A DNA stretch of 64,000 nucleotides from a virus (IMGVR_UViG_3300031578_000017); one strand, 5' to 3'; shown: positions 6,260 to 49,959, counted from the stretch's first letter. A program made the numbers and translations. The notes: generated by a model from the sequence alone, not told the origin.

Positions 6260-6544
6260 CTACCGCACTCTACTGTAGACTTCCATTGTGCCACGCATTT
6301 CAAGTTCTGCGATGGCTTGCTGTTTCAACCAAGTCCAACGCAACTGAAGTTTTGCAACGACTATCGGTCGGAACTCACCCTGCTCCAATTGCTGCTTAAT
6401 CGTTTGGTCAACGAGTTTCTCAATCTCAACATGCTTCCACATTAACAATTCCTCATCAGAGGTTTTGTTATTTATTCGCTGCCCAATCTCCTTTACAATA
6501 AATTCCGACTCCACGTTCTGGTTAACTAACTGGTTGACTGTCAT
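6260..6544 (-). CDS. hypothetical protein
   Basis: 94 aa, GGGG RBS, upstream promoter TTGTGT-N17-TAAGCT (6601-6633). Confidence 0.65.
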   Translation of the reverse strand: MTVNQLVNQNVESEFIVKEIGQRINNKTSDEELLMWKHVEIEKLVDQTIKQQLEQGEFRPIVVAKLQLRWTWLKQQAIAELEMRGTMEVYSRVR

Positions 6545-10381: not shown

Positions 10382-10697
10382 TTTGCCTCTCCCATTGGTT
10401 CCTAGACAACTTTAAACCTTGCACTACCTGCCATACACAAACGGTTTAGAATATACTCCACGACACAGCTAAATAGTCGTTGATAACCATTTTATTGTTA
10501 GGCACAGCACATATAATGTACAAATTATTTCATTTTCCATCTTAAGCAAGAATGTGTTTCTACGTGAACTTTATTCGTGATCTTGCATTTTATCCAATTA
10601 ATGGGTCTATTAAACCATTTAGGATCAACATATCCAACAACATCTTTGTGATATTTGCAGTATCTACATATTTTTCTCATTTCGTTATTCCTTTAAG

Positions 10698-10770
10698 TGC
10701 GTTCGGTGGGGTTCGAACCCACGACCAACGGATTAAAAGTCCGCTACTCTACCAACTGAGCTACGAACGC
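10698..10770 (-). tRNA. tRNA-Lys(UUU)
   Basis: cloverleaf; anticodon arm GCGGA-CTTTTAA-TCCGT; GGTTCGAACC T-arm; no encoded CCA. Confidence 0.95.
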
Positions 10771-10776
10771 AGAACT

Positions 10777-10852
10777 TGGCATCCTCGGCAGGACTCGAAC
10801 CTGCAACCTACAGATTAGAAATCTGTTGCACTATCCATTGTGCTACGAGGAC
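10777..10852 (-). tRNA. tRNA-Arg(UCU)
   Basis: ACAGA-TTTCTAA-TCTGT; ends in GCCA. Confidence 0.95.
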
Positions 10853-10854
10853 AC

Positions 10855-10926
10855 AGCCACCTTCAGGACTCGAACCTGAAACCCCCGCATTACAAATGCG
10901 GAGCTCTACCATTGAGCTAAGGTGGC
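10855..10926 (-). tRNA. tRNA-Thr(UGU)
   Basis: CCGCA-TTTGTAA-TGCGG; GGTTCGAGTCC T-arm. Confidence 0.95.
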
Positions 10927-11395: not shown

Positions 11396-12061
11396 CTAAA
11401 ACAAATAATCTTCAAGATATTCTGGATTATCATGATGTTTTGACATTCTTTCTTTTACTCTCAAAGTCAAACCAGATTTATTATCAAATTTTGAATATGG
11501 AATTTTTATAAATATATCTATAAACATTATATAAGAAACAATGAAATCAATATTTCTATATTTAATATTTTCTAAATTTGAATGTTTTGTTCCATTTATA
11601 CTTACTTTTTCTCCATCAAAATTACAATTCTTACATTGTATAATTTCAAAACTCCCATTAATGCTTGAAATAAAATCTACTTCAGAACTTTCATTCAGTG
11701 GAATAAATATTTCATATCCTAACTGTATAAATCTACTCTGACATTTAGATTCTATAAAACTTCCAAGATGAAAAGTAGTAATTTCTTTTCCAACTATAGA
11801 CTTTAATATGTTCCAATTTTCAAATTTTCGTTTTTCTTCTTCAGTCAACAATTTTCGTTTATCCCAACCCCAACAAGATTTTTCATCTATATCTAGAATA
11901 TATCTTAAACTTTGTATCTTTTCTACAGATACGCCGTAAAAATCAGCAACTTCTTGAAATGACATAAATTCAAAATCTTTTATCAATTGTTCTTTTATAA
12001 TTGGTCTATTTTCATTATTTAATTGATCAGATCTTAATTTGATTAATTCTTTGATATTCAT
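11396..12061 (-). CDS. free-standing PD-(D/E)xK homing endonuclease (I-Ssp6803I/PDDEXK_5-like) with N-terminal HTH
   Basis: GSFIE...F..LGYEIFIP...EVDFI...IIQCK; N-terminal FQEVADFYGVS HTH; GGAG RBS before ATG 12061. Confidence 0.7.
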   Translation of the reverse strand: MNIKELIKLRSDQLNNENRPIIKEQLIKDFEFMSFQEVADFYGVSVEKIQSLRYILDIDEKSCWGWDKRKLLTEEEKRKFENWNILKSIVGKEITTFHLGSFIESKCQSRFIQLGYEIFIPLNESSEVDFISSINGSFEIIQCKNCNFDGEKVSINGTKHSNLENIKYRNIDFIVSYIMFIDIFIKIPYSKFDNKSGLTLRVKERMSKHHDNPEYLEDYLF

Positions 12062-12076
12062 GATTTTCTCCAAAAA

Positions 12077-12155
12077 TGGTTGGAGCGGAGAGGATCGAAC
12101 CCTTCTACGGACAGGTGTTTATAAGACACCTCGAGTCAACCAGACTTTCGCTCCA
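12077..12155 (-). tRNA. atypical tRNA-Ile(UAU)
   Basis: TGGAGCG/CGCTCCA acceptor plus ACCA; GGTGT-CTTATAA-ACACC; GGTTCGATC T-loop; short D-loop, long variable region. Confidence 0.75.
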
Positions 12156-12214
12156 ATGTACCTACCTTATGTACACTTGCTCTAACCGTCTTAAAATAAT
12201 ATTTCTATACAATT

Positions 12215-12301
12215 TGGTGCTCCGGGAGGGAGTCGAACCCTCATGGTCGTAAGACCAACGGTTCTTAAGACCGTTGCGTATCCCAATTCCGCCACCGGAG
12301 C
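12215..12301 (-). tRNA. tRNA-Leu(UAA)
   Basis: ACGGT-CTTAAGA-ACCGT, long variable arm GGTC-TTAC-GACC, ends in ACCA. Confidence 0.95.
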
Positions 12302-47781: not shown

Positions 47782-49959
47782 CTAATCGACATCATCACCT
47801 ATTTCTTTTGCTTCAGTTGTATCGTCACTGTCTTCTTCAGAAGCTGGTAAATCACCACCCTCTTTTATTTTATCTATTATGAAATCATATATACTTTTTT
47901 CACCATTTTCTTTTGAAGATTTTTCAAATTCTTCTATGAAACTGATAGCAGAATTTTTTCCTACTCCTAGTTGCATTTTATCTTCCTTAAGACCTGTAAT
48001 TGAGTATGTCTTACCTTCCTTAACTATTACTCCCATCAACAATCCTGTACTTAATAAATTTCTTGCAAGATCGAATCCTTTACTAAAAATTAAATCTGCT
48101 TCACAAATTCTAAATGGTGGAGCAACTTTATTTTTCTTAATCGTAAGTTTAGTTGTACATCCTATTGATTTACCTTTAGTTCCTATCTCACCAGTTCTAC
48201 GTACATCTACACGAACCGATGCATAGAATTTCAAAGCTCTTCCACCAGAAGTTGTTTCAGGTGAATTGTGAACTATGACACCATTTGGTCCACCGACAAT
48301 ATAGTTGTGATTATCTTCAATTTCTAAATCATATTTATATCGTTTTCTACCTTTGGTATGTCTATAATTTATTTCTTTTTTAAGAATTTCTACTGGAATG
48401 TTTTCATTCACAATGTCTATTTCACACTTATTTTCTAATTTAGGAATATTGCAAAATTTTGAATGTAATTTATAATGCATACATTCAGGCACATATTTGG
48501 ATATTGCTTTATGAAAAGAAAATGTTTGTTCACCACCATTAAAATACAATCCTTTTCCAATTTTTACCTGTGGTTTTTTAATTCCTAAAGATTCTATCCA
48601 ATTTGCTGCACAATTTAATTGTTCTTCATTCATCAATTTAGAACAAATTGATGTTCTACCAGCACCCCACAATTCTTTAGTTAGTACATAAGTTCCATCG
48701 TCTAAATACCAAATAGTCAAAGCTAATAAACCACATTCTTTAAATCCAAACCAATCGTTTTTAAATTTATAATTCCCATTACAAATTTCTTTTCTATATT
48801 TTTCTAATCTGATATCTGCATTAGTATCATATCTAAAATTTGTTGTATTGTTTTCTTGCTTTACTTCTCCACCTAAAATTGGTTTAAATAAATTTGCTTT
48901 CCATCTAATATATCCTTCTTGTTCTTTACAATGACCCAACCTAAATCCAGATTTATGATAACTAATTTTTCTTAAAGAACCGTCTCCCAACATAGAACCT
49001 ATAAGTAAATCTTTAAAATATTTACAATCTTTATGTGAATCATAACTTAACAAAAAATCTCCAACTCTAAAATCACCAGCATTTTTTTCTATATATTTTC
49101 CATTGTCACATAAAATCATTTTATGATTAGATGTTACTCTAAATTTAGAATATCCACATTTATTTGGAGCAGTTGTTTTGAATTCTAAAAAATTATCTTC
49201 TACACCATTATTAAACCATCCAATTATGTTTTTAGATTCTATAGTATTTGATTCTTTATTTAAAGATAATACCTTAACGTCTTTTTTCTGATTTACTATT
49301 TTACCGATTTTTTCAGTAGTACCATCTGCTAAACAAATTCGCGAATCATAATCAAAACATCCCCATCGAACTCCAATCTTTTCACGTATTTGATTGATGA
49401 ATATGGCGGTACATTCTGTGCGTGAAATTATTGAAGTCAGTTTTCGCATTGCCTGTGACATTAATCTTGCTTGTAACCCCATATGTGACTCGCCATACTC
49501 ACCTTCTAATTCTGCCCTTGGTACTAATGAAGATACTGAATCTACCACAACTATATCAATTACACCACTTTCAATAAAATGCTGTGTCAATGTTAAACAT
49601 TCTTCGGCATGAGATGGTTGACTTAAAAGTAACTTATCTAAATCCACACCTAATCGTTTACACCAAGCTGGATCTAAAGAATGTTCCATATCACCATACC
49701 ATGCCCAAGCTCCCTGTTTTTGTGCTTGTGCAATCGTAGTCAAAGCAGCAGTTGTCTTACCTGAAGATTCAGGTCCATAAATTTCTATGATACGTCCTTT
49801 AGGAAAACCTCCTACACCTATAGCTAAATCAAGTTGAGGTATTCCTGTTTTCCAAGCTGGTACTATCTTAATAGCCTTTTCTGTCAATTTCATTACTATC
49901 GAATTCTCACTGAACTTTTCGCGAGTCTTCGCAATTAAGTCGTCTAACGAAATTCCCAC
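47782..49959 (-). CDS. recA: RecA recombinase (intein-containing)
   Basis: [55 protein letters not shown]. Confidence 0.95.
48265..49359 (-). mobile_element. 365-aa intein with LAGLIDADG homing endonuclease in RecA
   Basis: begins CFDYDSRI after GVRWG, ends VIVHN before S; [11 protein letters not shown] and IWYLDDG motifs. Confidence 0.95.

Follow-up and report, generated by a model that had tools for sequence, protein, structure and literature searches.

A phage tRNA-Ile(UAU) gene whose non-canonical body is conserved in a small family

The DNA analysed here, referred to below as the window, is a stretch of 64,000 nucleotides from a virus (IMGVR_UViG_3300031578_000017). Positions 12077–12155 of its minus strand hold a real tRNA gene with the anticodon UAU, which is non-canonical by objective measures. 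The odd body of this tRNA is the conserved design of a small phage family, and not the outcome of decay. Taken together, the sequences indicate that the gene probably encodes a working elongator tRNA-Ile for AUA codons, independent of TilS and built on a compensated non-canonical scaffold.

The window belongs to a phage, with genes for a UvsX-like recombinase, ribonucleotide reductase, helicases and a tail fibre, and a mean GC content of about 35%. Helicase homologues at 90%, 85% and 53–62% identity were found in Logan/ENA assemblies only, and the IMG/VR relatives reached by protein-anchored searches, at most 41% identical, are without such a tRNA. Within the ORF of the UvsX-like recombinase (47782–49959, minus strand), residues 313–499 match a LAGLIDADG homing endonuclease, which suggests that the ORF contains an intein. 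Five tRNA genes form a cluster on the minus strand. Canonical genes for tRNA-Thr(UGU), tRNA-Arg(UCU) and tRNA-Lys(UUU) occupy 10697–10926 and are recognized by both ARAGORN and the Rfam model RF00005; a canonical class II tRNA-Leu(UAA) (12215–12301; ARAGORN 125.6, RF00005 56.6 bits) is the upstream neighbour of the tRNA-Ile(UAU) gene, from which it is separated by 59 nt. The cluster is split by a PD-(D/E)XK endonuclease gene (11396–12061, minus strand; PF11645, E 4.8e-10) that starts 15 nt after the CCA of tRNA-Ile(UAU). It looks like an independent mobile insert, and no homologue of it was found beside the other family members. Abutting the 5′ end of the tRNA, at 12156–12175 of the minus strand, is a hairpin of 5 bp (UGUAC/GUACA) with a loop of 9 nt, which is not conserved at the other family loci. 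No promoter or terminator specific to the tRNA-Ile(UAU) gene was found.

ARAGORN, whose score had been proposed as a check when the gene was first noticed, does call it, as a 79-nt tRNA-Ile(tat) including an encoded CCA. The score is 103.3, against 121.6–126.7 for the four neighbouring tRNAs. When the 64-kb window was shuffled 150 times with dinucleotides preserved, ARAGORN called one tRNA in total, scoring 102.9; this rate, together with the location 59 nt behind a tRNA-Leu(UAA) on the same strand, excludes a chance match. At its gathering threshold of 29 bits, RF00005 reports the four neighbours and not tRNA-Ile(UAU), which is still missed when a 501-nt stretch is searched at E ≤ 10. Within a 93-nt stretch, the top match of the tRNA clan is the tRNA-Sec model RF01852 at 23.1 bits (gathering 47), RF00005 falling below this value and being suppressed. 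The better fit of the Sec model comes from the features it anticipates, namely an anticodon stem of 6 bp, a very small D-loop and a short T stem. With R1, a covariance model built on the family described below, the window gene scores 103.1 bits.

Relatives of the gene were sought with sequence patterns. A search by architecture held the three loops (D, anticodon and T) constant, at the spacings of the window gene, and placed no constraint on the stems. In JGI metagenomes it retrieved 11 stretches, nine of them homologous genes that ARAGORN also calls as tRNA-Ile(tat). These nine represent four distinct sequences: L020; L021, shared by L023 and L030; L022, shared by L025, L027 and L029; and L028. 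The first architecture pattern had no match in IMG/VR, nor did an exact 22-mer of the T arm and acceptor, and a pattern based on the variable region yielded there the sixth distinct sequence, L037, on a 132-kb contig (record G001). In total, the family comprises the window gene and five other distinct 79-nt sequences of the same architecture. All productive patterns fixed the anticodon loop, with the exception of one scan with a single match: an anticodon-free pattern that returned L037 again from IMG/VR, its anticodon being also UAU, and nothing else. An earlier anticodon-free pattern had no true match in IMG/VR or in 185,579 species-representative genomes; three GTDB matches, in Gemmata and Pyrinomonadaceae MAGs, are due to chance and are not tRNAs. 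The Gemmata MAG contains a near-identical element of about 60 nt at L031:1897–1960 and L032:2147–2210, in which the 16-mer of the family D arm is followed by a GC-rich hairpin, a genomic repeat and not a tRNA. When three family members were compared by blastn with 50,697 GenBank phage records, the only similarity found was that of the T arm to other tRNAs, and a match in a Microcystis phage was discarded as not being a tRNA.

The tRNA-Ile(UAU) family is rare and was seen only in phage-like contigs. The L028 contig carries virion-protein and HNH endonuclease genes together with 16 tRNAs, the L029 contig has a protease/tail gene and the family tRNA as the only tRNA found, and G001 is a 132-kb virus record with 23 tRNAs; two members thus sit in arrays of 16 and 23 otherwise canonical tRNAs. 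The GC content of the member loci ranges from 34% to 56%, and neither proteins nor similar flanking DNA common to the window and the other family loci were found. A single-read error turning CAT into TAT, named at the outset as something that could undo the finding, is unlikely, given that five independent assemblies carry the scaffold with TAT, an argument limited by search patterns that fixed the anticodon loop.

Several other tRNA-like genes were observed at these loci and in related searches. In L021 and L030, a tRNA with the anticodon UAA lies just upstream of the family tRNA. A decayed, 67-nt tRNA-like copy lies in L021 (3207–3273, plus strand), 38 nt after the family tRNA; it keeps the CUUAUAA loop, an intact T arm and ACCA, is without a D arm, scores 19.5 bits with R1 and appears to be a defunct duplicate of the UAU tRNA. 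L037 contains a second non-canonical tRNA (6369–6441, minus strand) with the anticodon CAU, a C1xA72 mismatch, a 4-nt D-loop, a 4-bp T stem and one unpaired U before the acceptor strand; ARAGORN gives it 103.2 and R1 36 bits, and it lies below the Rfam gathering threshold. Finally, three tRNA-Leu (UAA/UAG) calls are only 75–77 nt long, one in L021 (2903–2977) and two in L046, Bacillus phage P59 (1734–1810 and 1812–1888). They are without the long variable arm typical of bacterial tRNA-Leu, and such short phage genes may encode Leu tRNAs of class I shape.

The six sequences align without gaps. The cloverleaf used for counting pairs has 7 bp in the acceptor stem, 4 bp in the D stem, 6 bp in the anticodon stem and 4 bp in the T stem; all 21 pairs are standard in every sequence, 11 of them changing on both sides. 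None of the shuffles matches the observed pairing or covariation score, and on the other measures at most 1 in 500 does so. When partners were slid by 1–3 columns as a control, pairing was 40–53%. RNAalifold, given the six members and no fold, returned the same fold as consensus. While the stems drift, three elements are near-constant: the D arm (raw positions 9–24), the variable-region motif G-U-C-Y-G..G and an unpaired C before the 3′ acceptor strand. The low scores are also a family trait. None of the other five members reaches the RF00005 gathering threshold, which 30 neighbouring tRNAs in those loci do, and their ARAGORN scores of 101.8–104.7 are at or near the bottom of each array. With R1, family members score 87–104 bits and all other tRNAs at most 40 bits, the best non-family match being a canonical tRNA-Ile(GAU). 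The compensatory changes, and the fact that the same “defects” are kept in all six sequences, exclude decay and a false positive. The unusual features, which could have been taken for idiosyncrasies of one gene, are therefore the conserved design of a small family; the association of the scaffold with UAU, seen in six sequences retrieved with patterns that mostly fixed the anticodon loop, may not be exclusive.

All features listed in the sequence-only reading were found again on the reverse complement: the U1-A72 pair, A73 and CCA, the UGGUU D-loop, the CUUAUAA loop with U33, A37 and A38, the 6-bp anticodon stem, the variable region of 8–9 nt, the A.C mismatch at 49:65, and the presence of U12-A23 along with the absence of C4-G69 and C29-G41. 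Every part described here is on the minus strand. The 5′ strand of the acceptor stem (12149–12155) pairs with 12081–12087; its seven pairs are kept in all six sequences, four with two-sided changes. A linker, A8 A9 (12147–12148), precedes the D arm, so that the near-universal U8 is replaced by A8 in the family. The D arm (12134–12146), which lies in its usual place 5′ to the anticodon arm, consists of a 4-bp stem (A10-U25, G11-C24, U12-A23 and C13-G22) and a 5-nt loop, and is near-invariant among the six members, the sole change in a pair being one-sided. The loop retains the GG for contact with the T-loop, and its GGUU is also found in the canonical tRNA-Ile(GAU) of L037. The D arm as drawn by ARAGORN, with A9-C23 as the fourth “pair”, was rejected, the 10–13/19–22 stem being paired in all six members. 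The D and anticodon stems are joined by a C-G dinucleotide (12132–12133), invariant in the family, in place of the lone nucleotide 26 of canonical tRNAs. A 2-bp pairing of this dinucleotide with Y47-G48 of the variable region, spanning the anticodon arm, is possible (C-G in six sequences; G-C in three and G-U in three), with no two-sided change.

The anticodon arm (12113–12131) comprises a 6-bp stem and the 7-nt loop. All six pairs are kept in all sequences and five change two-sidedly, including the extra pair at the top of the stem, which covaries (A-U in three, G-U in two and G-C in one). The anticodon UAU (12121–12123), which reads AUA, is identical in all members, as found with search patterns that fixed the anticodon loop. 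The variable region (12104–12112) is 8–9 nt long; G44, U45, C46, G48 and G51 (raw numbering) of its conserved motif are invariant, and it contains neither a hairpin nor a GAU motif. The T arm (12088–12103) has a 4-bp stem, kept in all six sequences with two pairs changing two-sidedly, and a canonical T-loop with the sequence UUCGAUC; an unpaired C (12088), invariant in the family, separates this stem from the acceptor strand. The fifth T-stem position (49:65; raw 52:68) is unpaired throughout, as A.C in three sequences, U.C in two and C.C in one, and raw 8:68, an A.C or C.C combination, is unpaired in all six as well. The 3′ end (12077–12087) includes the acceptor strand, the discriminator A73 at 12080, invariant in the family, and the CCA at 12077–12079, which is encoded in five of the six members. 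Three possible pairings can be drawn, namely C23-G48 with G24-Y47 (the pairing of the C-G dinucleotide mentioned above), G51-C68 with one bulged nucleotide, and one involving a duplicated G-U-C in the variable region; in all three the partners are invariant or changed on one side only.

Regarding isoleucine identity, the nucleotides invariant in all six sequences are A73, G2-C71, G3-C70, U12-A23, C13-G22, the D-loop GGUU, C32, U33, A35, U36, A37 and A38. They match tRNA-Ile, as judged by the identity set of E. coli IleRS and tRNA-Ile consensus sequences. In work of Nureki et al. from 1994, A73 and U12-A23 were reportedly defined as identity elements of the E. coli enzyme; C4-G69 and C29-G41 are identity pairs of this enzyme. 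In the family, position 4:69 is A-U in four sequences and G-C in two, and the equivalent of 29:41 is U-A, A-U, C-G or G-U. The anticodon loop has the form expected of an elongator tRNA-Ile, a 7-nt loop with an NAU anticodon and U33, A35, U36, A37 and A38, and reads CUUAUAA in every member. No class I synthetase was found in the 132-kb phage G001, and no TilS-like PP-loop motif in the 64-kb window; the tRNA must depend on the IleRS of the host.

AUA is an ordinary codon of the window phage. In 80 ORFs of the window it makes up 42% of isoleucine codons, or 32.6 per 1000 codons. AUA is used without avoidance, as it represents a fraction of 0.425 of the AUH codons, equal to that of A at four-fold sites (0.426). 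The five phage tRNAs read AAA, AUA, UUA, ACA and AGA, the leading A-ending codons of the phage. On the L029 contig AUA is the commonest isoleucine codon (46%; share 0.456 versus 0.487 expected) and is likewise not avoided; in G001, with 56% GC, it accounts for 9% of isoleucine codons and is strongly avoided (0.088 versus 0.259 expected), and the tRNA is kept. The 30 AUA codons of the window's ribonucleotide reductase gene were compared with 93 homologues of less than 70% identity. The residues aligned to them are Ile in 28%, Val in 18% and Leu in 15% of cases, at 21 of the 30 positions the most frequent residue is among these three, and several positions have Ile in 70–80 of the 93 homologues. 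The AUA codons of a helicase gene agree, with only 10 codons. These alignments indicate that AUA is isoleucine in the window phage, where, given its frequency and the Ile/Val/Leu positions it occupies, insertion of any other residue would be ruinous.

Other explanations of the gene have to be weighed against this evidence. The transcript might be a processed, tRNA-shaped RNA that does not decode, acting as a decoy for an anticodon nuclease or another tRNA-targeting defence, as a sponge for modification enzymes, or as a processing (punctuation) signal for the endonuclease mRNA. A non-canonical core rejected by RF00005 would agree with such a role, as would an endonuclease gene that begins 15 nt past the CCA, and an invariant D arm and variable-region motif amid drifting stems is what recognition by a protein would produce. 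The decoding parts are nevertheless all conserved (the 7-nt loop of Ile type, A73-CCA, the T-loop and the GG of the D-loop), and codon use matches the tRNA set of the phage. The downstream context differs in every family member, which makes a cis role for one mRNA unlikely, and no tRNA-Ile-specific nuclease is in evidence here. We regard a non-decoding RNA as unlikely; both versions of it put forward in the sequence-only reading, the nuclease decoy and the tRNA-like RNA with another role, gained no support. Much less probable is a UAU tRNA of another amino-acid identity that recodes or mistranslates AUA, in the manner of serine-identity allo-tRNA(UAU). UAU is indeed among the predominant allo-tRNA anticodons (PMC5389517), and the best match in the Rfam clan is tRNA-Sec, a group with which the gene shares a longer anticodon stem and a small D-loop. 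The long variable arm is missing, however, the discriminator is A73 and not G73 or U73, and the acceptor and T stems are 7+4 and not 8/4 or 9/3. At 32.6 AUA codons per 1000, located at conserved Ile/Val/Leu positions, a residue other than isoleucine would damage most proteins.

A decaying pseudogene, or a marginal false positive of ARAGORN, is more improbable again. The score of 103.3 lies just above that of the single shuffle call, the Rfam gathering threshold is not reached, and a genuinely decayed copy does exist beside the L021 member. Yet pairing is 100%, with 11 doubly changed pairs in six lineages whose flanks are unrelated, and the diverged stems argue against recent copies. The least credible possibility is an initiator-type tRNA that would let the phage start genes at AUA. 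Both structural marks of an initiator, a 1x72 mismatch and three consecutive G-C pairs at 29-31:39-41, are lacking: position 1:72 is paired in all six members (as U-A, G-U, G-C, A-U or U-G), and the foot of the anticodon stem in the window copy reads U-A/G-C/U-A. The neighbouring gene begins with ATG. The TilS-independent AUA decoder is the favoured reading, to which the covariation over six lineages, the frequent and unavoided AUA codons, their Ile/Val/Leu positions and the invariant nucleotides of Ile type all point.

A phage tRNA-Ile(UAU) is in itself already known, and it is the scaffold that is new. We found no description of it in the literature searched, nor in a review of non-canonical tRNAs (PMC7609411). 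The rarity ascribed to UAU tRNAs in the sequence-only reading holds for bacteria and not for phages, as the Synechococcus phage S-SSM7 has a canonical one (GU071098.1, “codon recognized: AUA”). It shares with the window gene the anticodon, the Ile-type loop, a similar small cluster with Leu(UAA), Arg(UCU) and Thr(UGU) tRNAs, an AT-rich phage genome and, presumably, the task of decoding AUA. The S-SSM7 gene, however, is a standard cloverleaf of 73 nt, with an RF00005 score of 56.6 bits and an R1 score of only 26.8 bits, whereas the window gene is below the RF00005 gathering threshold and has a 6-bp anticodon stem, a 5-nt D-loop, the inserted C-G, a long variable region and a 4-bp T stem. The tRNA-Ile2(UAU) of Mycoplasma mobile likewise combines UAU with A37 and A38 and is read as isoleucine without lysidine (PMC3575796). 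It is drawn as a cloverleaf (PMC3575796, Figure 1B legend), and M. mobile has an adapted IleRS (Arg865) and an adapted ribosome (PMC3575796), whereas the phage must use whatever enzymes its host provides.

The gene also departs from the tRNA classes that its proportions recall. Anticodon stems consistently have 5 bp, the exceptions being tRNA-Sec, allo-tRNA, tRNA-Pyl and one mitochondrial tRNA (2020 review, PMC7609411). The known tRNAs with a 6-bp anticodon stem, that is, tRNA-Sec, allo-tRNA, tRNA-Pyl and mitochondrial tRNA-Ser(UCN), all have a D-loop of 4–5 nt and an L shape (PMC7609411). The longer anticodon stem, small D-loop and shortened T stem are shared with tRNA-Sec, allo-tRNA and the selC* tRNA-Cys (RF01852; Mukai et al. 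2017, PMC5389517). An assignment to tRNA-Sec was rejected on the score (23.1 bits against a gathering value of 47), the anticodon UAU instead of UCA, the missing variable-arm helix, a D stem of 4 bp instead of 6 bp, and acceptor/T stems of 7+4 instead of 8/5 or 9/4. For allo-tRNA, the 12-bp branch (8/4 or 9/3) is excluded by the unpaired raw 8:68, and the stemless variable region of 8–9 nt and A73 also speak against it. The canonical RF00005 form does not apply either, given six covarying anticodon pairs, a T stem of four pairs and C-G in place of nucleotide 26. Also comparable are tRNA-Pyl and the mammalian mitochondrial tRNA-Ser(UCN), which likewise combine a 6-bp anticodon stem with a 4–5-nt D-loop in an L shape, the latter also keeping G18 G19 and the T-loop sequence (PMC7609411). 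In these two, a single nucleotide links the acceptor stem to the D stem and the variable loop has 3 nt (PMC7609411), whereas the window family has two linker nucleotides, the extra C-G and a variable region of 8–9 nt, and differs from them in domain of life and amino acid.

In the favoured reading, the tRNA would be processed, charged with isoleucine by the IleRS of its host and employed by the ribosome, where it would read AUA through an anticodon with U34 of the unmodified type. Independence from TilS would follow from U34, TilS acting on C34. The phage, for which AUA is an ordinary and frequent codon, would in this way bypass the scarce lysidine-containing tRNA-Ile2 of the host and TilS; the host tRNA-Ile2 could in principle read AUA alone. 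In E. coli, a tRNA with a UAU anticodon is a poor substrate of IleRS and misreads AUG on the ribosome (PMC3575796), so function in the phage host is not assured. Also counting against this reading are the absence of C4-G69 and C29-G41, the A8 in place of U8, the low use of AUA in G001 and the small size of the family. Longer-anticodon-stem tRNAs do work in the E. coli translation system (PMC5389517). Missing from the D-loop are the nucleotides by which the 8-14 and 15-48 layers are usually formed, and the anticodon/D helix gains a Watson-Crick pair and the inserted C-G. The longer anticodon helix and the shortened D-loop may offset each other and keep the distance from anticodon to elbow, a compensation that resembles tRNA-Sec, tRNA-Pyl and mitochondrial tRNA-Ser(UCN).

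The most speculative part of the proposal is that the stiffer D/anticodon junction and the invariant core might address the poor recognition by IleRS and the misreading of AUG. It is conceivable, though we hold it doubtful, that the conserved body is purpose-built for the use of a bare U34 on AUA in hosts that otherwise depend on lysidine. With a minimal D-loop and a rigid, extended anticodon/D helix, bending during ribosomal selection could become costlier, such that U34 would accept A and not G, and the invariant core might give IleRS a handle that offsets the poorly recognized UAU anticodon. Mutations in the tRNA body, for example the Hirsh suppressor, loosen decoding. The restriction of U34 proposed here would be the opposite of that effect and of “superwobble” tRNAs with 4-bp stems. 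A link between 4-bp anticodon stems and wider wobble is described in a 2026 paper that does not cover 6-bp stems (PMC13092985).

The family represents a covariation-supported tRNA with a 6-bp anticodon stem for a standard amino acid in phages of bacteria. The scaffold is a candidate orthogonal scaffold for the reassignment of AUA and, as a natural body kept across unrelated phages, an object on which the tuning of identity and wobble by the tRNA body can be tested. All six members lie below threshold in Rfam and barely pass ARAGORN, which means that annotation pipelines can be expected to under-count the AUA decoders of phages.
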